Assembly: GCA_036785375.1 (NCBI GenBank)
Contig: JAWMAR010000603.1
Location: 434,001 to 498,000 of the forward strand
Direction of reading: 5' to 3'
DNA length: 64,000 nucleotides
Source of the DNA: Leucoraja ocellata
Lineage: Eukaryota
A model generated the notes under the pieces. It did no database searches. It was not told where the DNA came from and was given only the letters and a program-made list of their open reading frames with translations. Below are positions 229 to 64,000 of the stretch, piece after piece (positions within the stretch are counted from its first letter, which is position 1; each line of letters starts with the position of its first letter). A program made the position numbers and the translations under genes.

Positions 229-739
229 GTTCAGGATTGTGCAGTGTTCTCCTAATCCCACTCCTCCCTCCGTACCCGTGGCCCCCACATCTTCACCAGT
301 CGGCACCGACCTCTGATGTGAAGACACACCGACACCACATCTCAACGCGGGCGTTTCGTTTCCTCTCACTATTTACATTTTAGATTCTGTCTAAATGGAG
401 CCGTATTTATATTATATTGTGCTCGCTCCGTATCTCCAACCCCGGCCCAAAAATACAAAGTGATGAAGTAACTCAACGGGTCAGACAGGTATCATCTGCA
501 TTTCCTTGCAAATTAATCAACTTCGCCAAGAAATCCCGGTTAAAACAACTCCTTTCAAAATATAAACGAGCGCAAGTTCCTTCCAATACATTAACATTAT
601 ATTCAATCTCACACTACCTTGAAAGATAGCGGGAAGGTCACTGAGGGAATCCTAGCCAATAACAAGCAAAGACCTTTTCTGCATTATGTACATAACCGAG
701 TAAATAAATCCAATGATTATTCCAAAACACTGCTCCTGT

Positions 740-3223: not shown

Positions 3224-3308
3224 AATAGACACAAAATGCTGGAGTAACTCAGCGGGTCAGGCAGCATCTCTGAAGAAAAGGAATAGGTGACATTTTGGGT
3301 AGGAGCCC
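3224..3308 (-). mobile_element. Penelope terminal-repeat-derived short element
   Basis: agacacaaaatgctggagtaactcagcgggtcaggcagcatctct... family sequence. Confidence 0.8.
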
Positions 3309-4548: not shown

Positions 4549-4642
4549 CCCGAAGAAGGGTCTTGACCCAAAACATCACCCATTCCTTCTCTCCACAGAT
4601 GCTGCCTGGCCCGCTGAGTTACTCCAGCATTTTGAGTTTACC
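4549..4642 (+). mobile_element. Penelope terminal-repeat-derived short element
   Basis: gaagaagggtcttgacccaaaacatcacccattcc...ctgagttactccagcatttt (decayed core). Confidence 0.8.
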
Positions 4643-6010
4643 GACACTTGACCTGTTTTTCAAAATTTCAAATGCCCAAGCAGAACTTGCTGAAAATACT
4701 CAGCAGGTCAAGCAGCATCTTTGGAGACAGAAACAGAAGCTGCCGTGGTGTTGAATATTTTCCACATTTTGGGTGATTTTCAACATTTGAATTTTTTTTT
4801 GGTTGGCAGTTTGTTCACTGATGCAGCAATCTGTTTCATGCTAAATTATGAAAGCTTACTGTTTATTTTGTTGGTTCACATGCTTGATCAATGGTGTTTT
4901 ATCATTAATGTTTTATTATTATTAATGTTGTCTTTTCTGAGTCATTTGTAACTGTCACTGTATGTCATGTTGTTACTTGTGGGCAGAGCACCAAGGCAAA
5001 TGCCTTGTATGTGAATACTTGGCCAATAAACGTACTTACTTACCGTTTATGTTTGTCTACAATGATATGCAGTCCTGGTCTTTAGATCATCTATCTTCCA
5101 GGCAAAGTACTTCCATTACCAATTTCCTTAATGATTTAAAACAATCGGACCACGTATATCCTTAAGTTTAATTTCAGCATCATGATTAGTGCTGTTACCT
5201 TGCAACTCATGGACTGGACACAATGCTTATTGCCTTTTCTAAAAACCTTCCTAGTTTCCATTAATTGTTTTGAGAATTCAATGAAAACACAGAATACAGT
5301 ACAATTTGTTCTCAACAATTTGAAACTGAATTATCAGGTTGCTCAAGTTAAAGATAAGAAACAAGAAATTTAGCCTGAACTAATTGCTTATGAATAAAGA
5401 GCAAAATGTATCCTGGTTGATCTCAACTGTGGCAAATCCCCAGTGGGTTACAGACTGCCTATTAGGATCATGTTCGGTGAATCTATTTGTAGCCCTATTA
5501 TTATTACATCTGATGTTAACAGTTATTGCCCAGCAATATGATAACGCTTTCAAAGTTCAGTTAAGTGTCTTTTTTTCTCTGCTTCACTTTAATAATATGC
5601 TCTTCCATGTGTAATTACCTTGCCAAAGTTAAGTATTGTTTTCAGGTAGGCAGTCAGCTTCCATCTAGTTGCTGACAACACCAAACTCCAGCATAATCAT
5701 CCAATGCCTGATATCAAGCAGTTTCTACCCCTTAGAAAGAAATAACTTTATTTTTTTTTCTAACACCTTTCGTTACTTCAAAATATCTCAGAAATGGTTA
5801 TTAGAGTAAACCAAGAAAATACCATTATTAATTTGTGTGAGCAAGTTCTCTCGAAACAGCAATGGAGTTAATGAACTATGTTCAGTTTTAGCTAAGTTGG
5901 GTGAAGGATAAGTATTCTTTGAGGAAAAGCTGTTGAGCATTGTATCCAAAATATATCAACACTTCCCACTCCATCAACACTAAATTGTTCATCCATATTA
6001 TGTGTTTCAA

Positions 6011-6179
6011 TTGTAGAAAGGAACTGCAGTTGTTGGTTTAAATCGAAGATAGACACAAAAAGATGGAGTAACTAAGTGGGTCTGACAGCATCTCTGGAGA
6101 AAAGGAATAAGTGATGTTTTGGGTCAAGACCCTTTTTAGACTGAGCCGCAGAGTCACTCCAGCTTTTTGTGTCTATCTC
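6011..6179. mobile_element. Penelope terminal-repeat-derived short element, inverted composite
   Basis: Minus copy plus a short inverted tail. TSD tatgtg(t/c)ttcaa at 5999-6010 and 6180-6191 (11/12). Confidence 0.8.
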
Positions 6180-6719
6180 TATGTGCTTCAAATCTCTGGT
6201 TTAAATCCACAACCTTATGACATAGAGGAAGTGCTACCATTCAGCCAAGGCTGAACACATGGTCAAAGCAAAAAACATCTTGCCTGGTTTCTGCCAGAAG
6301 GCCTTTTTGGCCAAGTGCTAGATTCACTCTGCAATCCAGGTTGCCCATTTCAGTTCAATCACCAGAAAGACTCAGGAAATGCCCCTCCAGCCAGCCTAAA
6401 ACACAGGGAGCTGACCATAGCAAAAATACAAGATATGTAAGTGTCGGAGATGGATTGCCAAGAGGGAAGATGATTAACACTCAAAATGTATTTGCACTCG
6501 AGATTAACATCCTTCTATTCAACAGCTGCTCAGGTTGGCCAGTGTTTTTCACTGCTACAATAGTTCATTTTACATCCAATGAAAAATAAAAACTTCAATT
6601 TATCCATGATAAAACACAATTTTAATGTTAATAGGAGAAAAGGTATCCAAAAAACCTCACAAAAAAAGTGATATACGGAAATGCCACAAAATCCAAAAAC
6701 CTTGGTGTGTTTCCATGTG

Positions 6720-7760
6720 GTAAGCTGCTCTGGAAGGTTACATTGCATGGGATCAAGGAAGAGCTAGCCAACCGGATATAGAATTGCCTTCGTGGAAGGA
6801 AGCGGAGGTTTCTGGTGGAAGGTTATTTTTCAGACTACAGGTCTGTGATTTAGTGTGCCTCAGAGATTGGTCCTGTGCCCATTGCTGTCTGTGGTTTATT
6901 ATATATCAACTATTTGGATGAGAGTGTACAATACACGATTAGTAAATTTCAGATTATGCTAAAGTAGATGGTATCGTAGATAGTGAAGGTGGTTTTCAAA
7001 AAAATTACAACTGGATTTTGATCAGCTGGGCGAGTGGGCTGAAAACTGGCTAATGGAGTTTAGTGCAGATAAATGTGAGGTGTCAAACCAAGACAGGGTC
7101 TTCACAGTGAATGGGGAGTGTTGTAGAGTAAAGGGATCTAGCAGTGCAAGGACATAGTTCCCTAAAAGTTGCATTACATGTAGATAGGGTGGGGAGGAAG
7201 GCTTTCAGTAAGTTGGCCTTCATCAGCCATGGTATTTAGTATAGAAGTTGGGACGTTATGTTACAGTTGTAATAGTTGTTGCTTGTTCAGTTTTGGGCAC
7301 CATGCTATAGGAAGGATGTCATTAAGCTGGAAAGAGTGCAGAGAACATTTACGAGGATGTTGCTGGGACTCAAGGGCCTGCCCTATAGGGACAGGTGGGA
7401 GGCTTGGATTTGATTCCCTGGAGCGCAGGAGGCGATCTTAGAGGTGCATACAATCATGGAGGAATAGATCGGGTGAATGCAGGGCCTCTTACCTAGGATA
7501 GGTGAATCAAGAATCAGGTGTAAGGTGAGTGGAAGATTTATTGACAACTTGAGGGGCAACTTTTTCACTCAGATGATGGTGGATATATGGGACAAACTGC
7601 CAGAGTAGTTCAGGCAGGTACTATAACAGCATTTGACAGACACTTGGTCAGATGCATGGAGAGGTTTAGAGAGCTATGGGCCAAACGATAGGTTAGAGGG
7701 GGCATCTTGGGGTGCATGGACGAGTTGCGGCAAAGGGCCTGTTTCAATGCACTATGACAT
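6720..7760 (+). mobile_element. Degenerate CR1 LINE
   Basis: Decayed RT motifs (gtgcctcagag, atcaactatttggatg, gaaagagtgcagagaacatttac) and a 3' end aaagggcctgtttc. Confidence 0.8.
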
Positions 7761-10717: not shown

Positions 10718-11903
10718 TAGATATAGATATAGATAGATAGATAGATATGCCATTTATTGTCACTATACATGTACAGTGAAACTGAAAGCTGCTCGTACTC
10801 AGTGCATACATACAATTTAGCACAAAAAACAAGAAACAGAAAAAACAAAAAACAGAAGGGAGATGGGGGGGGGGGGGGGGGAATAGGTGCACAAATTCTG
10901 CGGCGCTACATACATATATACATATCTACAGATGGAAGTCCGTGTTGGGCGGTGTAGTCAGTGCATGTGTGAATTTGAATTTATAGTAGATATAATTCTC
11001 GGAAAGCAACTATTCCCGAGTCTGTTTGTCCTGGATTTGATGCACCTATAGCGCCTTCCAGAGGGCAGCAGGTCGAACAGTCCAAACGCAGGATGGGAGC
11101 TGTCTTTGATGATATTCTTTGCCCTGCTAAGGCAGCGGGAGGTGTAGATGTCCATCAGGGAGGGGAGAGGGCAGCCAATGATCCTCTGCGCTGTCCTGGT
11201 TACCCTCTGAAGCCTCTCCCTGTCTGCCATGGTGCAGCTGCCATACCATGCTGTAATGCAGTATGTCAGCAGGCTCTCGATGGACGAGCGGTAGAAGGTC
11301 AGCAGCAGGTTAGAGTCCAGGTTGTGCTTCCTGAGGACCCTCAGGAAGTGCAGCCGCTGCTGACCCTTCTTGATGACCGCTGTCGTGTTGTCCGTCCAGG
11401 AGATGTCAGCCGCGATATGGACGCCGAGAAACCGGAAGGTGTTGACCCTCTCCACACACTCGCCGTTGATGTGTAGGGGGGCTAAGTCGGTGCTGTGCCT
11501 CCTGAAGTCGACAATGAGCTCTTTTGTTTTCCTGGTGTTCAGAGCCAGATTGTTTTCTGAGCACCAGGTTGTCAACTTCAGGACTTCCTCTCTGTAGGCT
11601 GCCTCGTCTCCCTTCGAAATAAGTCCGACCACAGTAGTGTCGTCAGCAAATTTGACGATGCGGTTGTTGTTGTGGGCCGGACTACAGTCGTAGGTGTAGA
11701 GACAGTATAAGAGGGGGCTTAGCACACAGCCCTGTGGGGAACCGGTACTCAACCTGCGAGTGGAGGAGAGGTGGGGGCCGAGTCTCACAGTCTGGGGCCG
11801 GTTGGTGAGGAAATCCTTTATCCAGGCACATGTGACAGTGGGGAGGCCGAGAGTGACCAGTTTACCAATGAGAATGTCCGGAATGATTGTATTAAAGGCT
11901 GAA
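10718..11903 (-). mobile_element. Rex1/Babar-type non-LTR retrotransposon, 5'-truncated, young
   Basis: Uninterrupted RT frame FSSAFNTI...[13 protein letters not shown]...[12 protein letters not shown]...LLPSGRRYR to the stop at 10958, then a 3' UTR with a (TATC/TATATC)n tail. Candidate TSD ctaaaaga at 10710-10717 and 11904-11911. Confidence 0.88.
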
Positions 11904-12849
11904 CTAAAAGAGAGCCTTGGATGAGCATTTAATTGTCAAATTGAATGCAGCCTTGCTTATGTACCATATGCAAGCTCTGTGGTCACATTTTGTGATCGCT
12001 AAGTATTTTGTGTTGCCACTGGCCAATAATTAATTTTAAAACTTGTTTAATCTTCACCCTAACACATGTAGAGTCTCTAAATTTCCTGACGATATTTTGT
12101 TGTAAACATGATGTTTTATTAAGGAGAAGCATGTATTAACCCTAGATCTGCCTCTGCATCATTGAGAGCAGAACATCACACCATATTTGAGGGGCATTAC
12201 GGAGGCCATCAAGTACAATGGTTCCTTTTAACAATATTTCTTTGCAATATTTTACACATTGGATAGTTATTACAGGTTTGTTTAATAACCCTCATTCTAC
12301 TTATACAGGGGATTGATCATTCATGGTTGAGTACAAATTAGCGTGTAGGGAGCAGCACCAAGTAAATCTATAAATAAGATGCCAAACTAGTAGAGCTGGA
12401 CACAGGACATATTAAACAATAAAAAAACAAAATGCAACTGATATATACAAGATAAAACAGCCAAGGAATTAAATCAAAGCTCGGCAGACCTGCCACATCA
12501 CATGATGTGTAGTGGATAAAAGGATGGGATACAACACACGAGGGCTAAATACCAGGGTGTAAACATTCACAGCCACTGCCAGCTGGATGAACAGTACGAA
12601 CGTTCCATCACTGTTCCCCCCCAAGATCCCTGTCAACACCAAAGCCCATTTGCAACCAATTTGATTCCCTCCAAGTGATAGCAAGAAACGGCCAAGAACA
12701 CCAAACACAGCAAAGGCTATGGGATCGGGCACCTTATTATGTAATGACAGGAAGCGGCTATTTGGCCTTGGGGTCCTGTGAGAGCAATTCCAGAACAAAC
12801 TGCCCCTTTCCTTATTTTCCCGTAAATTATTCTCCCGCATGTGCCTATC

Positions 12850-13429: not shown

Positions 13430-13650
13430 AGGAAAACCTCAACAAATCAGACAGCATCTGTGGAAAGTGAAACATTTCAGATCAATGGTGAATGTTTAGA
13501 TCAATTTTTTACTCTTCCCCTCAGATAAAGGGTCTCAGACCTGAAATGGTAACCGTTTCTCTTTCCACAGATGCTTTCTAACCTGCATCGTTTTTGCCAC
13601 CATTTCGTATTTATTTTAGATTTCCAGCATCTGTATATTTTTTTGATTTT
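13430..13650. mobile_element. Old diverged inverted pair of Penelope-type terminal repeats
   Basis: cagcatctgtggaaag...tttccacagatgct inverted pair, a decayed gataaagggtctcagacctgaaa core and a ttccagcatctg tail. Confidence 0.55.
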
Positions 13651-13919: not shown

Positions 13920-16401
13920 AAAAGAACATACCAGCAGTTTTATTCAAAACAAGTGGAATGTTTTGAAATAAATAAACTAATAACTAAGTGAAGTCATCCC
14001 ACCAGTATTCCTGCAACGGGCAATTCCCATCACTGGGCAAAACTATGCAAAGATTTTTATATTTATTCTAAATTATTAATTCACAAAGAAACATTAAATC
14101 TCATTGGTCTTGTTAAAAAAGATGGCACATTTATTGCTATATAAATGTTATATATACATATTATGGTTTATGTTGTCACTAACAGAAATCTTTTTCTTCT
14201 TGCTGTTGTGTAGAAAGGTTCATCAACAATACCTTAAATTTGACACGGGTACAAATCTGCATCAACCAACAATGGAAACTGAAGAACAAGATGTGAAGCA
14301 ACTTATCTCAGACATTTAGCTTGGACAATACTCCAGAGGTACTACACAGTTTAGCTAGAACCTACAATGTTCTTAGGATGCTATTTTATTTTCTGATATT
14401 AATGGACAGGTTATGGTAAATAACCCTACACTTCTGCTACCTAATATAGTAAAATAAAGTAAGAAACTTTTTTTACNNNNNNNNNNNNNNNNNNNNNNNN
14501 NNNNNNNNNNNNNNNNNNNNNNNNNNNNNNNNNNNNNNNNNNNNNNNNNNNNNNNNNNNNNNNNNNNNNNNNNNNNNNNNNNNNNNNNNNNNNNNNNNNN
14601 NNNNNNNNNNNNNNNNNNNNNNNNNNNNNATGCATCTATTATAGCCAATGGGAAAGAAAGCTTAGAACCAGGCTTGGAAGAAAAGGCCAGAACGTGTCAC
14701 GAGATCACTTTAGCACGTTTTAAGCAGCTGTTAGCCCAAACAACAAACTGAACAAGGCCACAAATACAGAAAAATAGGTGTTAACTGGTTTTGAATTAGT
14801 CAACATGAATCAATTAGAATAACAAAATCATACATAATTTGTCAAAAAATAATAATTCTTGGCAAATCCTTCAAATTCAAGGGTTTGGCATTCCGTTTAG
14901 CCCACCATGGCAACTTACACGAATTTTGCTCTTCAGTTGCCTTAGTGCCCAGAACAAAGGAATGCATTTGTTAATTCTGTTGAACCAATTGCCAACATTC
15001 AGATAACAGTGAGAAACCTTGTCAGATACTTTCTCTTCTATATTCCTTTTCAATGGAAGACAGTTTACATGGAAGTTAAGGAACTTGAATCCACACAGAA
15101 AAAAAAATGGAGACCAGCCAAAAGGAAACGCAAAGAAATTCCAAGTGGTTTAAAACAACTCATAGGAGTCTGTCATGATGGCTTCAAAAGGGCAGTTGCA
15201 TTTCTGGCTGCATCAGTCTCCGGATCTCTAGCCACTGACTAGCCATGCAGATAAGGAGATATCAAAAACAAAGTATGGTCTCAGAAAGCTGCTGACCATT
15301 GCTCTTCGTTCCCTCTAGATATTTTGTTAAGCTGACAGCACTTTGTTCTATGTCAGCACTACTGGCCCTGGTGATCCAAGGATTTTATCAGCTCCAACAC
15401 TTTTTGAGCCTGAAACCTTTGTTTTACACCTGTGCTTAATTACAGCAAACACTTTCACATGTACTAAATGTAGTATTAAATGCTTGAAAAGACAAAGCAA
15501 TTCTAAAATTAGTATTTTTCTAATTTACACTTCGCGTTACAAGTTTTACTATGAAGCCTAGAAGCTTAAAAGTTTGTATAATTACAAATAAAACAGATAA
15601 GCATGGGTATTTACTTGAAAGAATAAAGGAAGCTAACCTTATTTCAAGCTAAGTGATGCTGTGATCAGACCTGCCCTTTTTCAATAAAAACACATTCTGC
15701 TATTATAGCACACTGCTCATGACACAGGCATTGAACATAATTTAGGGAAATAATAATTGTGACCATAACTGTTCAGATAACCAGAGAACAAAAAATAAAT
15801 AAACACACTAACAAGGAATTTTCTGATACATGGAAAATGCTATTGGTGTGGCAAAAAGAATGGCGAAGACAACTAAGACTTCCCCTCCTTTTCTTAAGAC
15901 ACTAATAGGTTCTGGGAATGCTGGGGGTTAGTTAGAGGTCATTCCTGTTTTGTTCTCTGTATGTGAACAGGTTTAACAGATACAAGCATCAGCCCAGCTG
16001 AAAGTGAAAAATCAGATTTTAACATTTCCCTTTCAAAGTAGACCTTATAGTTCAGTAGCAATAAATAATTTTTGTTTTAAATGCATTCATCAACCAACAA
16101 GTTTAGGCACAAGGCAACTTCCACGAAAATTGGGATAATTGCAACAGTCTCTGATTGTGTGGAAGCAATACCGCTTGCAACAGATTGATATGTACTGTGG
16201 ACCAAAATTCAGATTCGGGTCAATTAAGTTTTCAGCGGGCTGAATATGATGCCATATTGATCAAGAGATTGCTTCTGGGTTTCTGTTTCAAGTGCGTTAA
16301 GTATTCCAACTGTGACTTTATGAAAGAAAGTTAGTTGGCTGGGTCCTTGTATGGAAAGATGACTCATTTGCAATTTTACAAAACCAATCCAGACTTTTGA
16401 C
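13920..16401 (-). other. TCF12: Probable TCF12 non-coding terminal exon (3' UTR); 3' end uncertain
   Basis: Strong acceptor ttttttcttgcag|G at 16401, followed by a repeat-free AU-rich stretch. Minus-strand AATAAA at 14130-14135, 14062-14067 and 13939-13944. Matches the known TCF12 layout with an intron just after the stop codon. Confidence 0.7.
14477..14629. other. Assembly gap (153 N)
   Basis: Run of N inside the putative 3' UTR. Confidence 1.
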
Positions 16402-21089: not shown

Positions 21090-21660
21090 CTACAAAAGAT
21101 GACAGTTTAAGCCTTTAAGCCATAATCCAATTAATTTAAGCATAAAAATATCAACAAGAGAATCAATATTCCGCTGCTTAGATATAAATTGTTTAATAAA
21201 TGTATACAGAAATGTACAAAAACTAAATTGAATACAGCCAATTTTATATAATTATTAGCTGGGCACAGTGAAGGAGACTTGAGATAATGCAAAAGTACAA
21301 CATTTCTACTGCTTTCCCAGCTCACATTATGTATAACTGTAATCAAATAAAAAGACAATATGAATATCCTATTCCAGTGTTTTCTTATTCAATTCTTATA
21401 CCTATTTAACTTAATTTTCTCTATTTTCGCAAGTTGAACTCCACCCTCCACAATATCCTCTTCAGTTTGGCCTACAGACTTCAAAAGTTTTGAAATGTTC
21501 AATTGAGATCAGAAAGTTTGAAAAGTGTAATTGAACAGAGCTAAAACAGAGAAATTCAACACGAAGTACAAATGCAGGCTACCAACCTACATGTAGAACT
21601 GAATCTCAAATTTAGAAGTTGAATACTGAAACTACACATAATGCAACTAAAAACTCCTTA

Positions 21661-23256
21661 ATCCTAGGATATTCCCTAGGACATTGAGGGAAGTAAGTGT
21701 AGAAATAGCAGGGGCTATGACAGAAATATTTCAAATGTCATTAGAAACGGGAATAGTGCCGGAGGATTGGCGTACTGCGCATGTTGTTCCATTGTTTAAA
21801 AAGGGGTCTAAGAGTAAACCTAGCAATTATAGACCTGTTAGTTTGACGTCAGTGGTTGGCAAAGTAATGGAAAGGATACTTAGAGATAATATATATAAGC
21901 ATCTGGATAAACAGGGTCTGATTAGGAACAGTCAACATGGATTTGTGCCTGGAAGGTCATGTTTGACTAATCTTCTTGAATTTTTTGAAGAGGTTACTCG
22001 GGAGATTGATGAGGGTAAAGCAGTGGATGGTGTATATATGGACTTCAGTAAGGCCTTTGACAAGGTTCCTCACGGAAGGTTGGTTAAGAAGGTTTAATTG
22101 TTGGGTATTAATGGTGGAGTAGCAAGATGGATTCAACAGTGGCTGAATGGGAGATGCCAGAGAGTAATGGTGGATGGTTGTTTGTCAGGTTGGAGGCCAA
22201 TGACTAGTGGGGTGCCACAGGGATCTGTGTTGGGTCCACTGTTGTTTGTCATGTACATCAATGATCTGGATGATGGTGTGGTAAATTGGATTAGTAAGTA
22301 TGCAGATGATACTAAGATAGGTGGGGTTGTGGATAATGAAGTCGATTTTCAAAGTCTACAGAGAGATTTATGCCAGTTGGAAGAGTGGGCTGAAATATCG
22401 CAGATGGAGTTTAATGCTGATATGTGTGAGGTGCTACATCTTGGCAGGACAAATCAAAATAGGACGTACATGGTAAATGGTAAGGAATTGAAGAATGCAT
22501 GTGAACAGAGGGATCTGGGAATAACTGTGCACAGTTCCCTGAAAGTGGAATCTCATGTAGATAGGGTGGTAAAGAAAGTTTTTGGTGTGCTGGCCTTTAT
22601 AAATCAGAGCATTGAGTATAGAAGTTGGGATGTAATGTTAAAATTGTACAAGGCATTGGTGAGGCCAATTCTGGAGTATGGTGTACAATTTTGGTCGCCT
22701 AATTATAGGATGTCAACAAAAATAGAGAGAGTACTGATGAGTGTGCAGGTAACATGGCTTCCCATTGCGGAATATTGTGATTTGGACCCCTTACTAGAAT
22801 GCTGCCTGGGTTTCAGCAACTAAGTTACAGAGAAAGGTTGAACAAGTTAGGGCTTTATTCTTTGGAGCGCAGAAGGTTAAGGGGGGACTTGATAGAGGTC
22901 TTTAAAATGATGAGAGGGATAAACAGAGTTGACGTGATAAGCCTTTCCCACTGAGAATAGGGAAGATTCAAAAAAGGGGACATGACGAGAATTAAGGGAC
23001 AGAAGTTTAGGGGTAACATGAGGGGGAACTTCTTTACTCAGAGAGTGGTGGCTGTGTGGAATGAGCTTCCAGTGAAGGTGGTGGAGGCAGGTACGTTTTT
23101 ATAATTTAAAAATAAATTGGATAGTTATATGGACGGGAAAGGAATGGAGGGTTATGGTCTGAGCGCAGGTATATGGGACTAGGGGAGAATACGTGTTCGG
23201 CACAGACTAGAAGGGTCGAGATGGCCTGTTTCCGTGCTGTAATTGTTATATGGTTA
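21661..23256 (+). mobile_element. CR1 (HER1-like) LINE, 5'-truncated, RT region plus 3' UTR
   Basis: ORFs 21684..22097 and 22098..22823: NYRPVSLTS, DFSKAFDKVPH, SGVPQGSVLGP, KYADDTK, LVRPILEYGVQFWSP. One in-frame stop, a small deletion and a 55-bp foreign insert. 3' end ggcctgtttccgtgctgta. Confidence 0.95.
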
Positions 23257-23835
23257 AAGGCAGAAGTACAACTAATATTCTATTACAATCTGCTCCTGTT
23301 GTACAATCAGGATCTGATGGGCTGATTTAATATATTTTAGCAAAATATTAATATTGATTTATGCACCACAGCTGTTACAGTGTGATACAAATTACATTTT
23401 CGAAAGGTTCCAAAGTATTTTAAATGAAAACTAATCTAACTAGGTTAGAGCATATTTTAATACACAAGAAAATCTAACTATACAGAAAAACTTTCAAATG
23501 TACGATGAAAGGGGCAGGAGCAGGTTTCCAAATACTTTGTTGCTAATTATAAAGGAAGATGAAAAACAACAAATTCCATGAAGAGTTCACAGTTGTGTCA
23601 TTGTATCATGTTTTTGACTGCAGCGTTACAACGTTATCCTTTCTCCACACACAAAGGATAGTAAATTGACAAACACACTCCTGCACAATGTTGAAAATAA
23701 TTCAATGATTTTCAAATCAAGACAGATACGTTTCTGCTGACCAAGAAAGTCAATGGATATGGAGCCAAGACAGAGAGGATTTATTCAGATCCAAAGCCAG
23801 TTGGCTAGTTATAACCAGGGAAGCTGTCTCTGCAA

Positions 23836-24742
23836 GGTTACACAAAAAAGCTGGAGAAACTCAGCGGGTGCAGCAGCATCTATGGAGCGAAGGAAATAGG
23901 CAACGTTTCGGGCCGAAACCCTTCTTCAGACTGATCGGGGGCGAGGGTGGGTGGGGACAAGAAAGGGAAAAGGAGGAGTAGCCCGAAGGCTGGGGGATGG
24001 GAGGAGACAGCAGGGGGGCTGAGGAAGGGGAGGAGACAGCAAGGACTAACAAAATTGGGAGAATTCGATGTTCATGCCCCCGGGGTGCAGACTCCCCAAA
24101 CGGAATATGAGGTGCTGTTCCTCCAATTTCCGGTGCTGCTCGCTGTGGCCATGGAGGAGACCCAGGACAGAGAGGTCGGAGACGGAGTGGGAGGGGGAGT
24201 TGAAGTGCTGAACCACCGGGAGGTCAGCTTGGTTATTGCGGACCGAGCGGAGGTGTTTGGCGAAACGATCGCCCAACCTCCGCTTGGTCTCACCGATATA
24301 GATCTGCTGACATCTAGAGCAGCGGACGCAATAGATGAGGTTGGAAGAGATGCAGGTAAACCTCTGTCGCACCTGGAACGATTGCTTGGGTCCTTGAACG
24401 GAGTCGAGGGGGGAGGTAAAGGGACAAGTGTTGCATCTCTTGCGGTTGCAAGGGAAAGTGCCCGGGGAGGGGGTGGACCGAGAGGGAAGGGAAGAATTGA
24501 CAAGGGAGTTATGGAGGGAGCGGTCTTTGCGGAAGGCAGATATGGGGGGAGATGGGAAGATGTGGCGAGTAGTGGGGTCACGTTGGAGGTGGTGAAACTG
24601 ACGGAGGATTACTTTTTGTATGTGACGGCTGGTGGGGTGAAAGGTGAGGACTAGGGGGACTCGGCCCTTGTTGCGAGTGCGGGGATGGGGAGAGAGAGCA
24701 GTGTTGCGGGGTATGGAAGAGACCCTGGTGCGAGCCTCATTT
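23836..24742 (-). mobile_element. 5'-truncated Penelope-like element (Neptune-type): Cys-rich linker, GIY-YIG endonuclease, 3' UTR and terminal repeat with hammerhead-like motif
   Basis: ORF 24046..24828 contains VPLVLTFHP, CNRKRCNTC, LIYCVRCSRCQQIYIGET..RF.KH and GMN, an intact reading frame. Perfect 15-bp TSD aagctgtctctgcaa at 23821-23835 and 24743-24757. Confidence 0.92.
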
Positions 24743-24917
24743 AAGCTGTCTCTGCAATCTCCAGACAGCTTTCTCCTGCAATAAAGAGCCCAGCAAATCA
24801 TGGTTTCACTGTATTTGTTGAAAGGCACATGTATTAAAAAATGACTAAAGTCAGCGGATCACCAATTTAGGTTTAAATTAATTCCACCATTACTCATTTT
24901 CAGCTTGATCACACAGA

Positions 24918-32310: not shown

Positions 32311-32679
32311 TTCTCCTACAGCCATGTAGTCTCTTTAGTGGCTAGAGGGAGTAATCTCTTGAACGATATAAAAATCTGCCACTTCAGCTAATGCATTCAG
32401 ATCATGAACAAACCCTAATATCTTCAAATAACTGAAATACTCCATTTGCAATTTGCAGTATTTTTAAATAATTACTCTGTATAAAGTCTAATTATGCTTT
32501 CCTTCCCTCCATCCCATCCCACACAATTAAATAATGAATCCAAGGGAACTGAACTGAAATGCTTAAGACTAGTCATTAAGATACAGACTACAAAAAGCAA
32601 TCAATTGAGCTTCATGGTGGGAAAAAGGGCATTGCCTTTCTTGGGCTCAAGAATCTTGAGCAAAAAACAAAGTGCTAGT

Positions 32680-33175
32680 GGAACTCTTACTTGAGCCTTA
32701 CTCTGACAGAACGGTGGGTATAGGAATTGGAATCAAAATGGTTAGCAACTGGAAGGTCCAGCAGGCCTTGACAGACAGTTCGGCAAAATGGTTCCTTGTC
32801 TGCGCTCGGTCTCACCAATGTAAAGGGAGCCACAATGGAAGCACCAAATGGAATAGAAGAGGTTAGAGGAGGTGCACATGAACCCTATCTCACTTGTTAG
32901 GGCTGCTGGGATCTCTGGATGGAAGTGAGAGAGGAGGTATTACATCTGAAGAGATTGCAGAGGAAACTGCTCAACGAGGAGGCAGGTTGAGACAGATAAG
33001 CAAATCAACATATTGCAGAGACAGCGATCTCTATAGAAAGCAGAAAGGGGATGGATGGGTAGATGTAAATGGCATTGGTTCCATGGTTTCTTTCCAATTG
33101 TATGTTGTGCTAACGTTGTTTTTTGTCATGTCTACCTTCAATTTAAATCAGCATCTGCAGTTCTTTCCTACACAT
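32680..33175 (-). mobile_element. Degenerate Penelope-like GIY-YIG remnant with an adjacent terminal-repeat fragment
   Basis: Minus-strand reading LFYSIWCFHCGSLYIGETERRQ around 32790-32860. Terminal-repeat-type sequence tgtctaccttc...cagcatctgcagttc at about 33130-33175. Confidence 0.7.
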
Positions 33176-33739: not shown

Positions 33740-34100
33740 GCACAAGAAATTGAGGTGTGATCTTATAGACTGAGGTATACAAAATCACAAGGGCCATATG
33801 CAGTCTTTTTCCCGAGGGTTGGGAAAACAAGAACTTGAGGATGTAAGAGGTGAAAGAAGAAAGATTGAACAGGAACCAGAGAAGGAGCTTCTTCATACAG
33901 AAGGTTAATGGGTATATGTAATGAGCTGTCTCATGTAGTTGAGGCAATACAATAACAACATTAAAAAAAAATACATTTGAACAGGTCCATGGATAGGAAA
34001 GGTTTAAGGGATTTGGGCCAAGTGGGACTAGTTTGGATTTGGGCATCTTGGTTGGCATGGATGAGTTGGGCAGGATGGCCTGTTTCCATGCTCTATGACT
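33740..34100 (+). mobile_element. CR1 3' fragment
   Basis: gtgatcttatagac..ggtatacaaaatc...ggcctgtttccatgctctatgact. Confidence 0.75.
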
Positions 34101-34235
34101 TCAGTCTGAAGAAGGGTCCCAACCCAAAACATTACCTATCCATGTTCTCCAGAGTTGCTGACTGACCCACTGAGTTGCTCTAGCACTTTGTGCCTTTTCT
34201 TGTAAACCAGCATCTGTAGTTACTTATTTCTACAC
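34101..34235 (+). mobile_element. Penelope terminal-repeat-derived short element abutting a CR1 3' end
   Basis: tcagtctgaagaagggtcccaacccaaaac...ctgagttgctctagc...cagcatctgtagtt. Confidence 0.8.
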
Positions 34236-36727: not shown

Positions 36728-36795
36728 ACCCGCTGAGTTTCTCCAGCATTTTTGTCTACCTTCGATTTTCCAGCATCTGCAGTTCCTTCTTAAAA
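36728..36795 (+). mobile_element. Penelope terminal-repeat fragment (3' part)
   Basis: acccgctgagtttctccagcatttttgtctaccttcgattttccagcatctgcagttccttcttaaa, which matches the 63646-63710 arm in reverse. Confidence 0.8.
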
Positions 36796-42315: not shown

Positions 42316-42822
42316 CACTTTACTATCATCTGCAAACTTGCTAGCCATGCCTTCTACCCTCTCATTCAAATCATTGATATAAACCACAAACTGTAATGGG
42401 CCCAGCACTGATCTTTGTGGCACAGCACCAATCACAGACCTTCATTCCGAAAAACAACCTTCCAACATCACCCTACATGAAGCCAATTCTATATCTAGTT
42501 AGCTAGCTCTTCCTGGATCCCATGCGATCCAACCTTCCAGAGCAGCCTACCATGCGGAACCTTATTAAATGCATTGCTGAAATGCACATAGACAACATCT
42601 ACAAATTTGCCCTCATCAACCTTTTTGATTACTTCTTCAAAAATCTCAATCAGATCTGAGACACACGATCTCCCACATACAACTCAGCTTGACTATCCCT
42701 AATCATCCTGTCTATCCAAATGCAATATATTTTAATATTTAGTCTATATTCCCCAGGCTTTTCCTTGCAGCCCTTTTAAAATAGAGGCACAACATTAGCC
42801 ACTTTAAAACTCTTCCGGCACC
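42316..42822 (-). mobile_element. CR1 RT fragment
   Basis: ORF 42172..42435: VPQRSVLGPLQFVVYINDLNERVEGMASKFADDSKVG. Confidence 0.85.
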
Positions 42823-43236: not shown

Positions 43237-43505
43237 CTGTGTAAATTAAGACCCAAAGTAAGCCATAAACTTAATATGCAGTTGAGCGAATCAGATACAA
43301 CAAATAAAAGTTTTTAGCATCCTTACCTAGTTTGGCCTACACAGGCCAATGTTGTTTACTCTAAAATGGCCTCGGAACTGGAGTTTCAAACAACTTGCAA
43401 TAGGAACAATATTTTGAAACTGAGAAAGAAGAAAAACACCTAGACAACTACCCATCAATGCACGCACCAAACTGTAAAGTTACACCAGCCCAGTTGAACT
43501 TGAAC

Positions 43506-43600
43506 AGTCTGAAGAAGGGTTTTGGCCCGAAACGTTGCCTATTTCCTTCGCTCCATAGATGCTGCCGCACCCGCTGAGTTTCTCCAGCACTTTTGTCTAC
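43506..43600 (+). mobile_element. Penelope terminal-repeat-derived short element with intact hammerhead-like core
   Basis: agtCTGAAGAagggttttggcccGAAAcgtt... TSD cttgaac at 43499-43505 and 43601-43607. Confidence 0.88.
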
Positions 43601-44964
43601 CTTGAACTTACAAAGTCCTCTTTGTAAATATCTGCAGTCCACTGACTACATTGGTAGAGCTTTAGCACAAACTAATCAAGCAAAAGACAGATATGGCTGT
43701 ACTCACAAAATCATACCACTCAATGTCTATTACAATTCCTAGGTTTGTCCTGTCCCATCAGCAGGACAGGCCCACAGTAAAAAACAAGCAGGATGCAGAA
43801 GCTCTGGAAATGCTCAGCATTGATTAGACCCCCATAAAGCTCCATGGATTCAGGTCAAATATGAACAAGGAAATCACCTCCCTCAGTTGATGAATCAGTG
43901 TTCTCCACATGGAAGAACATTTAAAATAAATAACAGAATATCAATGTCACAGGTTGTACCCTGGGTGGGGGACTTCAAGAACGACTTGGTTGCACCTCCA
44001 CTAACAATCAACCAAAGACTGAAAAATGGAGCTGCCAGACCAGCTCGGTGGCAGTTGGTGAGTGAACCAATGGAAGGATGCTTCTTGCCCATCTACCTGT
44101 GAGACGCATCTGTCCAAGAAATGGGTCTGCACAGCCTTGGTGGAGACAAAGACCCAGCTTAAGTGCATGGACACACTCTATTGTGTTGTGTGAACACTGT
44201 AATTGTGTTAAATACAGACTCAAAACAGATTTGCCCATTCACAACTGAGTATCTTTGTTGTAATATGTACCTGAGCAGCATCAGAAATACTCATCACAAC
44301 TGAATTGCCCACAATATCACTCACTCTCCCACTCCCACCAAGCCTGGGGCTGCCATTGATTCAAATAGAAATGCAGAAAGTTAAAAATAATGATCAAACC
44401 TAAAGAAGGCGACAATGTGAAGCTGCAACACGGGACAGCTAAACAAAGAGTATGAAATAAGAGGTAAGCAACCGACAGATCAGATATGCAATTGTCACAT
44501 ATACACGCAGTCCTACATGAATTGTGATGGAGAATTAAACAGAAATGGTGGCTTCAAGAAAATTCCAATCCCCAATGACAGCAGGGCCTACCTAATGATT
44601 GCTAAAAAGACTGATGCATTCTCACCAATGCAGAAATGGGTGATTTATTTCAAGTTCTGCCAGAGGTCCTTATCATCACAGAAGCCAGCCTATGCAATTG
44701 GACATAGCAAAAGTAATGGAACCACATGGATTCCTGTTGAGCAAGGGGTGAGAGGATACAACAGATAGATGGGAATGCAGAGCGGTTCATGATCAGATCA
44801 AAGTCGTGTTGAATGATGCAGGCTCAAAGGGCTGAGAGGTTAACTCCTTTTGATTAATTTGATGTTCAATAGGTAAATTCATTAATTTTGTAAACCATAA
44901 ACACACATAGAACTAATTAAGCCTTCAGCTCCAATGACTATCTTAAAAATTACAAAAATAGTCA

Positions 44965-47484: not shown

Positions 47485-48205
47485 ATTGTTCCATACACCC
47501 ACCACCCTTTGTGTGAAAAAGTTACCCCTCGGATTCCTATTAAACCTTTTCCCCTTCACCTTGAACCTATGTCCTCTGGTCATCGATTCCCCTACTCTGG
47601 GCAAGAGACTCTGTGCATCTGATCTGTGAATTCCTCTCATGATTTTGTACATATCTATAAGATCACCCCTCATCCTCCTGCACTCCAAGGAACAGAGACC
47701 CAGCCTACTGAACCTCTCCCTATACCTCACATCCTCTAGTCCTGGCGACAACCCCATAAATCTTTTCTGAACTCTTTCAAGCTCGACAATATCTTTCCTA
47801 TAACATGGCGCCCAGAACTGAACACAGTATTCTAAAGGTAGACAAAATGCTGTAGTAACTCAGTGAGTCAGCCAGCATCTCTGGAGAGAAGGAATGGGTA
47901 ACGTTTCGGGTCGAGACCCCTCTCCAGATATTCACAATATTCTAAATACGGACTCACCAACATCTTATACAACTGCAACATGACTTCCCGATGTCTATAC
48001 TCAATACTATGACTGATGAAGGTCAATGGCCCATATTCCCCCAAACATTCATGTTCATGTACCTATCCAAGTGTTGTAATTGTACCTGCCTTCATTACCT
48101 CATTCTACATAGCCGACAACCTGTGAAACAATTGACCCTCAGGTCCCTTTTAAATCTTTCACTTTCACCTTAAAAATGCACCCCCTAATTTTAGACTTTC
48201 CTGCC
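47485..48205 (-). mobile_element. CR1 3' fragments with a nested Penelope-type short element
   Basis: ORF 47419..47757: RLGLCSLECRRMRGDLI...TRGHRFKV...FFTQRVVGVWN. Confidence 0.85.
47837..47932 (-). mobile_element. Penelope terminal-repeat-derived short element nested in a CR1
   Basis: Family sequence. TSD caca(g/a)tattctaaa at 47823-47836 and 47933-47946. Confidence 0.85.
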
Positions 48206-51200
48206 TTGTCCCCATTTTATATTATAATTCTGATTCAGAAATGGTGATTAAACTACTGAGTTACTCCAGCACTTTGTCTCCATCTTTGATATAAACCAGC
48301 ATCGGCTGCTCTTTGTTTCTACACAAAGATGAGAGTCTGCCATGCAAGTGATCTCCGTCTCCAATACACGTCATACCCAGTCTGGGCATCTCGAATAACT
48401 GTAAATGGCTGCAAAGTTGTTTCCACAAATTCCTCCAAATCCACTGGCAGAGTTAGTCAACCACAACCAGCTTCCTTCCTATATCTCATGTAGAAAATGC
48501 AACAGCCTTGAAGACTTCATTGAATCTCATGGCCGTGATAGCTCATGATGAAAATCAGCATACGGAAAATCAGCATTAATGATTGGAAAAAAATGTACCA
48601 CAAAGCACCCACCTGCCCTATTAACACTATTAACTACTAACCCACTTGTGGCAGAGTGACAGTTCCAACATCGGCCTCAGCCACCTTCAAATCCAGACAA
48701 ATGGACCAGAAACAAGTTGTCCTCATTACCAAGAATATCAAATGAAAATGTGAACCACACTAATTTGGTTGAATAAATCCACAATAAGCTATGAGAATGG
48801 AGTTCAATACTTTCTCTTCATCATTGGAGTAATGTGCTTTGCTTTCTTCCTTATACCGAGGACTTGGTCTTACATGAAACGCTGTAGCTTGAATTATACC
48901 AAAACAAATTCCTCAACAAAAATGGCCTGGTCTCAATAAATCATTAAGGATTCCAAATGCTTATGTGCCACAATACAACGTAGAGGGAAGGGGGGTGAGG
49001 AATACCTGACCAAAGTACAGAAACATGTCAAGAACAAATTTTAAAAGCCGACACACAACATAAATTTTTATATCAATGGAAACTTCAAAAATTAACTCAA
49101 ATAATACACTCCAATAGATAAACTAAAAATATTCATCAGAACACATTATTTCTTTAGCTAGCAAAAATATTATCAGTAATGATTCTGCCACAGGAGAATT
49201 AAAATATTAGTGCACAATTTGGAAGGAATGATGATATCTGTCCAATGGTCTGTCTGAAACCCATTATTGGTGTTTACATGTACTGATATTATTTAATTTT
49301 TACAGAACATAATGTAAATGCTGATTTTATTGAAATGATAACTGAATTTGAGCATTATTATATTGGATTAATAAATAAACATAGAACATGGTATCCAAAG
49401 CACCAAGGCTATTAAACATAATTAAGAACAGAAACAGACTTGCCAGCTCTTTGAAACTGTTGTGCCATTCATCAAGACTACAAAACCTCCACCTCAGTGC
49501 CATTTTCTTGCATTATCCTTACAAGCCTCAAATAATTTCATTTCCAGAAAACTATCAACCTCTTTTATGAAGGCAATCAACAACAGAACCTCTAAGACTC
49601 TGTGGTACAGAACTCCACATTCTCACCACCTAAGTTTTGGTCAAATTTCTCTTCATTTTAGTTGTAAGAAACCTTTAAATACAATCTACTTTAGAACCAT
49701 CATTGTTACATGAAGATGCCATACGTGAAAAACGTGAAAAACTCTTTTGTTAAGAATCCAAGTATTTTGATTTAGCACTGAATGTTGAAATAAAACAGAT
49801 GTTTTTGAATGATTCAGTGCAATATTGTGGGCAAAACTTGAAAGAAAAACTTCTTGGCAAATGTTCAGGAAAATACATGAGAAATTTTAATCTGGGGTTT
49901 GACTATAATCTACAGAATTTGACTGCTTTCCAAAAATGTTTTACACAAAACTGTTTTTAGCTTATAAAATATATTGTGTTTCTTGCTGAATGGTGATTGT
50001 CCACTGGAATATTTTTGCTATCAGGGATTCCTCTTCAATAGATAGCATCAAGGTATAAAAATAGAAATTTCTGGAAATATTCGGGTCAGACTGTATCCAC
50101 AGATGGATGAAAAAAGCTAATGCTCTTAGTCAACCATTTATCATCAGGATTAAAAAAAATTAGTAACAAAATATTTGTTGCACAGAAAGGGTCGAAGGGA
50201 AAAGAGAACAACAGGCAAGCCACTGAGACAAAGAGATCACGGGAGGTTCAGTAAATCAAGTGGTGGCGATGGTGCTGGCTAAAAGGTGGTAGAGGTTCCT
50301 AAATAACAAAATGGTGTATCTGCGGAACGTGCAAATCGGAGATGACAATATTATCGGGAAAGAAAAATTAAACACTGGAAATATGCACTACCAGTCTGGA
50401 ATGGCTGATTTTCTAAAATGGTTGAATTTCTAATATGGAATCAAGGAAACTATTGCATGACAAATTGGAAGATAACATACTGATTCTCAAGCCTGCATTG
50501 AACAGGAGGTCAAAGGGCCAAATTTTGCATGTCCTGCTGTTGTACAAGGCAATGACATGCAACTGGATGAATGTATGTGTGGACGTGGATCCAAAGCATC
50601 TGGGGGGGGCGGGGAATTTATCCTGTTGGAATGCTTAAGGGAAGCGGAGGAGAACCCAAAACCTTGATCTGGGTGAGAGAAGAGGGGATGAGAGCTGGTC
50701 TCATTAACTAGTGGAGGGCAAAATCATACTTAACGATGATAGTCTCAGCAGGACCTTGCCCTCATTTCATTTGGAGATCTATCAGGCACAACACACCTCC
50801 TTTACCTCCTCCATAAAGATCCAAAAGGATAATTAGTCAGTTAAAATCATGCAGCGTGGAAACAGACTTTTAAGCTTTCTGAGGTCCCTCTAAAGCCTTT
50901 ATTAACTTCATTCACCGAGTTTAGAATATGAAATATGATATTAGTTCTGCCGGCGAAAATGTTGATAAAGAATGTGAATAGCCAAGACACTCCTTGCTAT
51001 CCCACCAGGCACTGACTGCCAACCCAAAAGGATTTGCTTATTCCTAATCTTTGCTTTGTTTCGATAACTATTTCTTGATCCATGGTAATTCCAGGGTGGC
51101 AGATTATGGAAGAGGAGGTTAGACGTCAATCTGAATTAAAGTTCAAAGGTAAAGCAGACAGAAGATAAGGTACGACAGAAGTGGGTGATGTGAAGTGGAA

Positions 51201-54400: not shown

Positions 54401-55412
54401 AAATATTTTTAACTTAACATTTTCGATATTAAATTCAGACTCCAAGTGCATTGCACCCTAAAGTAAATATTTTTAATTTAACATTTACAATATTAAATTC
54501 AGATGCTCCTTTAAATTTCGTTGTACATGGCTCATGTTACAATGACAATAAAGAAACTATTCTATATTCTATTCTATTCCAAGTAAACAATATGCACTTT
54601 CTCTAGTCATTTTAAAGCTTGGTTCACAAACTAATTATGTACAAAATTAACAGGAATCATATTTCACTATCGGTTGACACGAATGAAATATTTAAAACAT
54701 TTATCCTCCTTTATCCGATGCCCCTGCTGTACAGAATTAGCAAAACAAAAGTGTAAGTAATTTCCAAAATCCTCTAAAAAATTATATATTAGACTATTTT
54801 TGCAATATAAAAATCGAATCAATTCTGTTCAGTATTCTGTTTTACAGCTAGATGCAAAACATGTTTGACTTAGTTGGTAATTTAAAACATATGCTTTCTC
54901 TTTCACAGAAAACTTCAGTGTTACAAATTTAATGTTGAAACAATTGCAAGTCAGGAAGAACAGATGGACTGAAACAAGGGATTTATAGTCTGCAGTGTGG
55001 TATGTAATGATGGAGCAGATGGAATGCATCATCATCAGCTACAACAAGAATGATTTAAGGAATAACCTGGCTTCTCTTGCCAAGTAAAATGGGATGACAG
55101 AATCAAGTTACTGTAGCAACCCAGGTCCACCTATCAGTGAAATTCTACTTTTCCATTCTGACCTTCCCTCCTTAAACAATGCATTTAAAAACATATTTTC
55201 AATTTATTCACTCAACAATCTGGTGATAAGTTACTTTGGTTTTGAAGCAGGTGACAAATTATTTTGATGTCACATTCTTTCAAATGCACGCAAGCATGTA
55301 TTAAAAAAATAAGATGAAAAAATGCAAAGTGATAGGGCCTGGTTGGTGTACTGAGTTAGCACACTGCCCTTCTATCTCTGTTCAAAGATAATCCAGCCTA
55401 CTGAGATGACAG

Positions 55413-55507
55413 GTACACAAAAATGCTGGAGAAACTCAGTGGGTGCAGCAGCATCTATGGAGCGAAGGAAATAGGCAACGTTTCGGGCCGAAACCCATCT
55501 TCAGACA
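55413..55507 (-). mobile_element. Penelope terminal-repeat-derived short element
   Basis: Near-identical to 23836-23932. TSD atgacag at 55406-55412 and 55508-55514. Confidence 0.88.
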
Positions 55508-56820: not shown

Positions 56821-56909
56821 GGTCTGAAGAAGGGTCTTGACTCGAAACGTCACCCAATCCTTCTCCAGATACTGCCTGTCCTGCTGAGTTACTCCAGCAT
56901 TTTGTGTTT
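56821..56909 (+). mobile_element. Penelope terminal-repeat-derived short element (89 bp)
   Basis: ggtCTGAAGAagggtcttgactcGAAAcgtc... Perfect 17-bp TSD aactatcagtaggagac at 56804-56820 and 56910-56926. Confidence 0.9.
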
Positions 56910-62562: not shown

Positions 62563-63645
62563 TAAAAGAAAAGGTGCCACTTAACCAAAAGAAAATAACC
62601 AACTTTCTCAAAGAAATAACTTGAAGCCAAAAAATACATAAACCATGAATTAGTTAAACAGACAATTGATATATCCAAAATAGTGTATCAGAGGGAGGAA
62701 ATAAGAATATCAAATAAAGGTTTGGAGCTAACATGTTTACGAGTCAAACAGAAGCTTTCAGTGCTAAAATTCATGATTCTACATCTGTATAAACTAACCT
62801 CGTGGAATTCACTGCAATATCAAGAGATACACATTTATAAACCCAGAGCAGTTTGCTAAATACATTTGCATATATAATCACAACAGTGATAAACTGCATT
62901 TCAGAGCCACCCCCATGATTAAATTGATAATTCCATCTTCTCATTCGTCCAAACTAATTAAAAACAAGTTGTCAAATATTTCATTAATGGCATAATGAAA
63001 TTGGTGCTCTTTAACAATTGAATGCATCCTTAATAAATTAAGTTTACAATGCAATTAAAAACCAAATCTTTATCAAAAAATATTTCATTCTGATTTTCAT
63101 GAGTTGTAAATTAATATAATTCAAATAACTTCAGGTCAACATACTCAATACAAATATGACTCTACTCAACTCTAAAAAAGACTTTGTTTCCATTGTTGTT
63201 CTAAACAAAATTTGTTAAGAATTAGCCAGAAAAGGTTTGTGCTTCCCAATTGATCTTTCCATTCCAACTACAGCTGCCATTGAATGTAATGCTGATTAAA
63301 CTCAGCTGCAAATTGACAAAATGCAACTGTTACCTTAGTAACTTGTGCCTTTGCTCCAAACATGAGCTGAAGCACTTGATTTTTTATTTTATTAATGTAC
63401 CTTCTGCTTTGAACATCAAAGCTACTTATTGGAAAACAAAACTTGACATAAATTTACATGATCTCCTTTGCATTTCCCAGATTAAACCCCACAGAACCAA
63501 CTCGACTGACTTATATCTCTAAGTATCCTTATCCAATGTATCATATTTAAAATTCTTGGTGTCATGTCAAAATCCCTTCACTGCCTCACCACTCCCCTTA
63601 CTCCACTACTACCAACCACTCTCTTACAATTTCTGAATCGTGCAT

Positions 63646-63847
63646 TTAAGAAGGAACTGCAGATGCTGGAAAATCGAAGGTAGACAAAAATGCCGGAGAA
63701 ACGCAGCGGGTGTAGCAGCATCTATGGAGCGAAGGAAATAGGCAACGTTTCAGGCTGAAGAAGGGTTTCGGCCAGAAACGTTGCCTATTTCCTTCGCTCC
63801 ATAGATGCTGCTGCACCCGCTGAGTTTCTCCAGCATTTTTGTCTACC
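63646..63847. mobile_element. Head-to-head inverted pair of Penelope terminal repeats (fold-back element)
   Basis: Arms at about 63676-63750 and 63776-63850 are reverse complements around a CTGAAGAagggtttcggccaGAAAcgtt core. TSD ttctgaatc(g/a)tgcat at 63631-63645 and 63848-63862. Confidence 0.9.
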
Positions 63848-64000
63848 TTCTGAATCATGCATCTTTTAAAGTTTATGTCCCCTGATATGAAAACATTCAC
63901 TGGAGGGATTAGTTTCTTATCACTGATCAAATTCCACAATCACCTAAGACACCTTGAAAAGATTATCCCTTAAATATTCTGTATTTGGCTGAACATAGGT

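Follow-up and report, generated by a model that had tools for sequence, protein, structure and literature searches.

Single minimal hammerhead motifs are dispersed by the thousands and have been described as 'probably related to truncated PLEs' (Penelope-like elements), with close opposite-strand pairs also noted (PMC4209133, 2014; this and the other published sources are represented here by excerpts). These dispersed hammerheads, which later reviews have also covered, possess an unpaired base between positions 9 and 10.1, a G10.1-C11.1 pair, a palindromic helix III and a short helix I, all of which recur in the skate repeats reported below. The excerpts do not map the ends of single motifs, and one of the two supplementary files contains no shark or skate term. 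Solo terminal repeats (pLTRs), head-to-head inversions, an optional tail of 30-40 bp at one end and variable target-site duplications (TSDs) are known from Penelope of the rotifer Adineta vaga (PMC3846280) and from PLEs generally (Craig et al., 2021; PMC8557442), and are likewise found in the skate. However, rotifer Penelope has a very low copy number and pLTRs of ~200 bp, whereas the skate window holds 18 insertions in 64 kb, 16 of them non-coding.

The insertion of PLEs has been studied with PAc, a Poseidon element of the anole Anolis carolinensis (Frangieh et al., 2024; PMC11167929). PAc has two internal priming sites, with the optional tail lying between them, and it cuts and extends both strands. 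Cleavage by its hammerhead is protein-dependent and dispensable for insertion: hammerhead mutants insert unaffected, and the main template is uncleaved RNA. The skate repeats appear to resemble PAc in the two priming sites, the optional tail, the use of both strands and an insertion route that does not need the hammerhead. PAc differs in belonging to the Poseidon clade and in having an ORF that starts inside the hammerhead, whereas the skate protein carries a Neptune/Nematis linker. Non-LTR retrozymes (PMC7229834; Li, Clavereau and Pollet, 2026, 10.64898/2026.07.22.740005) are also non-coding and pLTR-related, bear a type I hammerhead and may occur as dispersed monomers, and PLE enzymes have been proposed to mobilise them. 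What defines them is a tandem-repeat organisation with two or more hammerheads, together with circular RNA, whereas the skate window has neither tandem arrays nor cleavage-defined ends. As far as these excerpts go, dispersed minimal hammerheads, solo pLTRs, short non-autonomous Penelope elements and pLTR-related retrozyme monomers are already in print. The excerpts of the PAc paper do not describe a pile-up of genomic 5' ends, those of the killifish Neptune paper contain nothing on short copies, and a search of the openly accessible literature yielded no account of 5' ends piling up at the edge of the hammerhead. PLE replication and the role of the hammerhead are still treated as open questions (PMC11167929 among other sources).

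The window, a 64,000-nucleotide stretch from the skate Leucoraja ocellata (contig JAWMAR010000603.1, positions 434,001 to 498,000), was searched by BLAST with the unit at 43506-43600, which matches 15 other sites at E < 1e-3. An initial annotation had listed 12 copies resembling the 3' end of a coding element at 23836-24742, and all 12 positions match either the 95-bp unit or that end. A profile built from 12 arms added weak pieces at 452, 4682, 13431/13523 and 48236, all at E < 0.03, whereas a control on the reversed window returned a single match at E = 3.8. Grouping the pieces left 18 insertions, which cover 3,201 bp (5.0% of the window) at a density of 0.28 per kb. Sixteen are non-coding; the other two, the element at 23836-24742 and the old remnant at 32663-33174, include coding sequence, and no full-length PLE is among the 18. 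A motif scan of bacterial and archaeal genome contigs gave 0 matches. The window also contains an assembly gap of 153 N (14477-14629), LINE-type reverse transcriptase fragments (Pfam RVT_1; 10961-11935 on the minus strand, 21651-22820 on the plus strand) and repeats related to these fragments (1603-1769, 6718-7758, 33935-34099, 42317-42734 and 47486-48026).

Twelve differences over 90 positions separate the two subfamilies A and B, which are accompanied by a third, older set (subfamily C), in agreement with the earlier proposal of at least two subfamilies. Short arms of subfamily A diverge by 0-5.5% from the majority sequence of A, to which the coding copy also contributes. With C3 of the hammerhead numbered 0, a variant at +88 is common to the coding copy and the 55413 copy and absent from four other A arms; judged by this one site, the short copies are therefore not a clade apart from the coding copy, and no short-specific variant is present among six A arms. 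A B-like tail arm is attached to the second coding remnant. Judged by sequence, the short repeats are the terminal repeat of a Neptune-type PLE.

The coding copy at 23836-24742 (minus strand, 907 bp) is a 5'-truncated PLE comprising the end of an ORF (24049-24741), a pyrimidine-rich 3' UTR and a subfamily A pLTR (23836-23932). It encodes 231 residues ending in a GIY-YIG domain, and the truncation falls inside the ORF. The domain scores below the Pfam cut-off (E = 0.0012) and has two cysteines inside the motif in translation. Upstream, the linker motif CNRKRCNTC fits CX2-5CxxC, a pattern that in the published excerpts marks Neptune and Nematis PLEs and is absent in Poseidon; the PLE clades reported for vertebrates are Neptune and Poseidon (10.64898/2026.07.22.740005). 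Every named homologue of the protein belongs to a shark or a ray; identity is 56-64% across the full fragment and, for the skates Leucoraja and Rhinoraja, 70-85% over parts. Longer homologues (about 60% identity) carry RVT_1 upstream, whereas the copies in the window end before the reverse transcriptase. One of 50 proteins scanned, a zebra-shark gene model (P0003), reads from GIY-YIG through the 3' UTR into a hammerhead-region peptide in the same frame. A PDB sequence search with the endonuclease fragment returned 0 matches. The features of the partner (GIY-YIG, linker, pLTR with a putative hammerhead, tail, inversions and variable TSDs), together with its elasmobranch homologues, support its assignment as an EN+ PLE of Neptune type, the link that had been suggested at the outset.

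The second coding copy, at 32663-33174, is an old remnant with an endonuclease fragment on the minus strand (32706-33079), a mostly deleted pLTR and an inverted B-like tail arm on the plus strand (33118-33174), and is supported by tblastn (E about 1e-8) and nhmmer (E = 3.5e-20). Most of its UTR is deleted along with the pLTR, and the remnant was absent from the initial annotation. An ATG in the pLTR of subfamily A starts a frame that continues across the tail (63581-63721, minus strand), whereas the tail of the B copies contains a stop; searching proteins with this frame gave eight candidates, none at E <= 10.

The 43506 copy contains a predicted minimal type I hammerhead motif at 43507-43538 (plus strand). 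CUGAAGA (43509-43515) is followed by an extra A (43516), stem II (43517-43528) and GAAA (43529-43532); an ACGU palindrome occupies 43532-43535, the predicted cut lies after 43536, and stem I would form between 43507-43508 and 43537-43538. The CUGANGA, GAAA and UH core, the extra base after A9, the G10.1-C11.1 pair and the palindromic helix III are thus all present, as first described, and the motif is the known minimal PLE-type hammerhead, a putative ribozyme. Stem I has 2-3 bp and helix II has 4 bp, in contrast to the longer helices of the schistosome hammerhead consensus as excerpted. The core sequence originally given for the best-preserved copies was found, but the loop at 43506 is UUUG, not UUCG, and core, stem II and stem I are kept together in the long copy and in 3 of 16 short insertions (43506, 55413 and 56821). 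The arm at 63752 keeps the core, but its stem I is gone and its stem II is one pair short; 3224 retains at most the 3' half of the motif, and the motif is wholly absent from 36728, 48255 and 452.

In 13 short arms the core has changed at 10 of 113 positions, against 69 of 931 elsewhere (p = 0.57; one CpG-decayed majority base of subfamily B was reset to G beforehand). The core decays neutrally in the short copies, as fast as neighbouring bases, and shows no excess conservation over the flanks, which is one half of a refuting condition named in the initial annotation. Between subfamilies A and B, 0 of 11 core positions and 12 of 79 others differ, which would fit selection on the source elements but is not significant (p = 0.35); both A/B stem differences preserve pairing (U-G vs U-A). 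Helix II is paired in 91% and helix I in 68% of cases (11 copies), with no two-sided changes and no excess over shuffles. The predicted fold of a monomer has stem II only, and the predicted two-copy cofold differs from a hammerhead dimer. No hammerhead family was among 12 Rfam matches at E <= 10, so the suggested Rfam check came out negative. The microRNA-like Rfam matches at 63703-63823 stem from an inverted pair, and a sub-threshold match to the CPEB3 ribozyme (2151-2214, minus strand; 26 bits against a cut-off of 35, E = 0.011) is probably due to chance. An alternative hairpin between GAAGG and CCUUC was rejected as a conserved structure, being not above shuffle or covariation controls.

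The insertion status of the copies was assessed with an anchored TSD test over 18 boundaries against 2,000 random flank pairs (strong, p < 0.005), which gave six strong TSDs (five short copies and the long element), three marginal and nine negative results. Strong TSDs flank (i) the tailed B copy at 1885-2019 (minus strand; 15 bp, 1870-1884 and 2020-2034), which has a decayed core and eight target-like bases at its 5' junction; (ii) the B copy at 47837-47932 (minus strand; 14 bp, one mismatch); (iii) the body-ended B copy at 56821-56909 (plus strand; 17 bp, exact), with an intact core and a 3-bp stem I; (iv) the pairs at 6011-6179 (12 bp, one mismatch) and 63646-63850 (15 bp, one mismatch); and (v) the coding 907-bp copy (perfect 15 bp, 23821-23835 and 24743-24757). 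The 47837 copy sits inside a host repeat, which we take to be CR1-like. Its insertion is true because uninterrupted paralogues of that repeat (1624-1729 and 7213-7363) hold the target once.

The marginal TSDs belong to three further direct copies. The solo pLTR at 43506-43601 (plus strand) is a body-ended, tailless member of subfamily A that shares 95% identity with the 3' terminus of the coding element, and is flanked by the 8-bp repeat TTGAACTT (43494-43501 and 43602-43609, p = 0.02), with 4 nt (43502-43505) between TSD and element. The body-ended A copy at 55412-55507 (minus strand) has an intact core and a 7-bp TSD (p = 0.08), and the tailed B copy at 34101-34235 (plus strand; p = 0.02) adjoins the end of another repeat and has lost G12. 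A decayed B copy at 4550-4641 (plus strand) has no TSD and may reach upstream into UTR-like sequence (13 of 23 upstream matches, p = 0.07). The remaining direct pieces are a partial B copy without CUGAAGA (3225-3300, minus strand), the 3' third of an A copy with tail (36728-36794, plus strand), a 3' part with tail (48255-48324, plus strand), a 3' fragment (452-496, minus strand) and an old fragment of subfamily C (4682-4727, minus strand). No distant TSD within 1.5 kb upstream of the TSD-less copies was significant.

In place of the seven short copies originally credited with TSDs of 7-17 bp, the test gives five with strong TSDs and two or three with weak ones. The evidence nevertheless supports the claim that the short copies are separate insertion events, with strong TSDs on five and paralogous empty sites for 47837. 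Since the coding 907-bp copy also has a TSD, TSDs cannot separate a SINE-like family from truncated insertions. In four direct copies, 3-8 bases that repeat part of the copy's own target lie between TSD and 5' end (2012-2019, 47928-47932, 43502-43505 and 55505-55507), which suggests template jumping or microhomology joining at second-strand synthesis. Read in element orientation, the TSDs at 43494, 47946, 24757 and 6191 have TT as their first bases. TT also comes next after the body or tail end of the element, which leaves a microhomology of 1-3 nt at the junction.

At the other end, the nine arms measured stop at +85 to +95 or at +123 to +129, the extra ~35 nt being the optional tail. The unit of ~90-200 bp first proposed is real in its short form, and the copies of ~200 bp are head-to-head inverted pairs. 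Such pairs lie at 63646-63850 (subfamily A; a full plus-strand arm from C3 at 63755 and a partial minus-strand arm with tail), at 6011-6179 (B; a full tailed arm on the minus strand and a short arm on the plus strand), at 62-228 (B; an internally deleted minus-strand arm from C3 and a tailed plus-strand arm from stem II, no TSD found) and at 13431-13636 (old and diverged, subfamily C). In all three well-preserved pairs the tail is on one arm only, as described for PLEs (PMC8557442). The tailed arm at 63646 does not contain the 5' sequence of the other arm, so a simple fold-back of one cDNA would not yield this pair; priming from both nicked strands could. At the inversion junctions 104-105 and 63754-63755, C3 is joined exactly to a site in or next to stem II of the other arm. 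The two 3' ends and the head-to-head pairs are textbook PLE features.

The 5' ends are more distinctive. Eight of 19 arms start inside the unit, corresponding to a loss rate of 0.0048 per nt, and nine of the 13 arms that reach C3 stop at -7 to 0, whereas the rate of truncation further downstream predicts 3.8% per arm (p = 1e-10; 1e-8 when multiplied by 120 for the post hoc interval; 3e-4 at a six-fold higher rate). These ends were assigned by hand, spread over 8 nt and come from one 64-kb window; among TSD-bounded direct copies alone, five of six stop at the boundary (p = 4e-7). The discrete short class claimed in the initial annotation is therefore real in the window: nine arms end within 7 nt upstream of the hammerhead. 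At least one and up to four of the 13 arms pass the boundary, counting the long copy and the doubtful 4549, 13523 and 32663; the upstream UTR used for comparison is that of subfamily A, so that longer B copies that have no TSD may have escaped notice.

A class of this size might be set by the ribozyme itself, if hammerhead cleavage freed monomers that were circularised and then reverse transcribed, as in a true retrozyme. The motif is present, its 11 core positions are spared between A and B (0/11 vs 12/79, p = 0.35), and pLTR-related retrozymes have been reported in vertebrates including one chondrichthyan (10.64898/2026.07.22.740005). However, cleavage does not define the class: the predicted cut product would begin at +28, and none of the 19 arms has its start at +26 to +30. 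Tandem arrays are absent from the window (TRF, 32 rows, longest period 28), intact same-strand copies are separated by kilobases, and the two arms of an inverted pair occupy opposite strands, where they cannot dimerise in one RNA; no dimer can therefore form within a short insertion. The published minimal monomer shows no cleavage in vitro and dimers cleave at a low level (PMC4209133), and one of nine Xenopus dimers was active (10.64898/2026.07.22.740005). With a stem I of 2-3 bp and a core that decays neutrally, a true retrozyme is highly improbable. The SINE side of the original 'retrozyme/SINE-like parasite' fares no better: the window has 0 tRNA genes, no Rfam match covers the 5' ends of the direct copies, and 0-13 nt separate TSD from PLE sequence. 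Given the missing cleavage-site starts, tandem arrays and tRNA-like head, both the retrozyme and the SINE tests fail.

The short repeats are best explained as solo pLTRs that arise by internal priming in the 5' pLTR of PLE RNA and run-off at the RNA 5' end, an explanation to which we assign an even chance. The element's own GIY-YIG endonuclease and reverse transcriptase would insert the short copies. The protein would nick the target and prime cDNA inside the RNA at ~92 or ~128 nt downstream of C3; where priming fell in the 5'-most pLTR of the transcript, ~95-135 nt would be copied before run-off. The RNA would end a few bases upstream of the hammerhead core, probably at a transcription start in the initiator-like TC-A-GT. 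The product would resemble a retroviral strong-stop DNA that integrates, that is, a solo pLTR with or without tail. Priming of both nicked strands would give head-to-head pairs with the tail on one arm, and the hammerhead would be carried along, neither setting the ends nor escaping decay after insertion. The parts of this mechanism (two-site internal priming, extension of both strands, a promoter in the pLTR) are taken from other PLEs. The match of the 3' ends at +85 to +95 and +123 to +129 to the two PAc priming sites counts for internal priming. We infer that the 5' cluster corresponds to the RNA 5' end, that transcription starts there and that coding elements supply the templates.

The start point of the short copies coincides with a pyrimidine tract, a CAG and an initiator-like TCAGTCT upstream of the long-copy hammerhead (23930-23965, minus strand; 27 of 34 bases pyrimidine). 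Compared with the initiator and 3' splice-acceptor consensus motifs, the match to the initiator is weak (0.013 per nt) and overlaps the ribozyme core by two bases, while the same bases fit the rarer splice acceptor (0.0008 per nt), which speaks against the run-off reading. In favour of that reading, an initiator-like TCACT is known from the rotifer pLTR (PMC3846280), and the pLTR of Penelope contains an internal promoter (PMC2377424). Against it, an intron of D. virilis Penelope ends at helix I (PMC4209133), and transcription begins at a site upstream of that point (PMC2377424). The skate sequence at 23930-23965 (minus strand) is likewise strongly acceptor-like before the hammerhead, and UTR-bearing copies could be spliced into host transcripts.

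The same boundary would also arise if reverse transcription from the 3' pLTR of a long RNA aborted just past the hammerhead, through cDNA fold-back or stalling at the C-rich UTR edge, in which case the short copies would be ordinary 5'-truncated PLEs. PLE insertions are heavily 5'-truncated (PMC8557442), and some arms, as counted above, pass the boundary. GAAGG of the core could pair with a downstream CCUUC in 91% of the cells of the comparison. In some B copies (z = -4.3 and -2.0) the long hairpin that would result has its base at the 5' boundary. However, this hairpin is no better than shuffles in four of six folded copies, including all three of subfamily A, and its covariation is not above control. 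Polymerases, moreover, usually stall where they run into the 3' strand of a stem, not once its 5' strand has been copied. A truncation hot spot of this kind is thus doubtful.

Recombination between the two pLTRs of full-length insertions, as in the origin of solo LTRs, would likewise yield a discrete unit with a TSD, but 95-bp repeats are short recombination substrates. The eight arms that start inside the unit would be left unexplained, and 0 of the 18 insertions are full-length elements. Although solo pLTRs have been reported with recombination or deletion as the suggested cause (PMC3846280), this origin is very improbable for the skate repeats.

A further possibility, which we consider unlikely, is a self-propagating non-autonomous family, in which short copies with an internal promoter and a protein-binding site are mobilised in trans; its transcripts might be RNAs of 95-135 nt or the 5' part of longer RNAs, and it is compatible with a run-off origin. 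The discrete 5' end, the excess of 16 short over two coding insertions and the presence of both priming sites in tailed short copies point in this direction. In rotifers pLTRs suffice for mobilisation in trans (PMC3846280), and non-autonomous PLE derivatives have been reported in Chlamydomonas and butterflies (PMC8557442 among other sources). Conversely, the short copies have no 5' sequence of their own (0-13 nt, mostly target-like), A arms lack short-specific variants, subfamilies A and B are each tied to a coding piece (B by its tail only), and body-ended copies contain no sequence downstream of the first priming site. There is accordingly only a limited chance that the skate repeats form a headless and very abundant class of 95-135-nt retroelements, each a module of PLE promoter, ribozyme and priming sequence. 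It is similarly a tentative idea that such elements are born as strong-stop-like cDNA, transcribed from their own internal start and re-copied by the PLE protein.

If the 5' boundary is the end of the template RNA, the short copies would map an RNA start and two priming sites in vivo, and internal priming as proposed in the run-off reading, known in vitro from a single Poseidon element, would, if true, apply to a Neptune-type element as well. Should the window be typical in its insertion density, very large copy numbers would follow genome-wide. Counts of single genomic hammerheads call for caution, as they would reflect mostly decaying PLE ends and not working ribozymes. The headless class, if true, would be among the smallest self-propagating retroelements and would represent a SINE-like route without a Pol III head.
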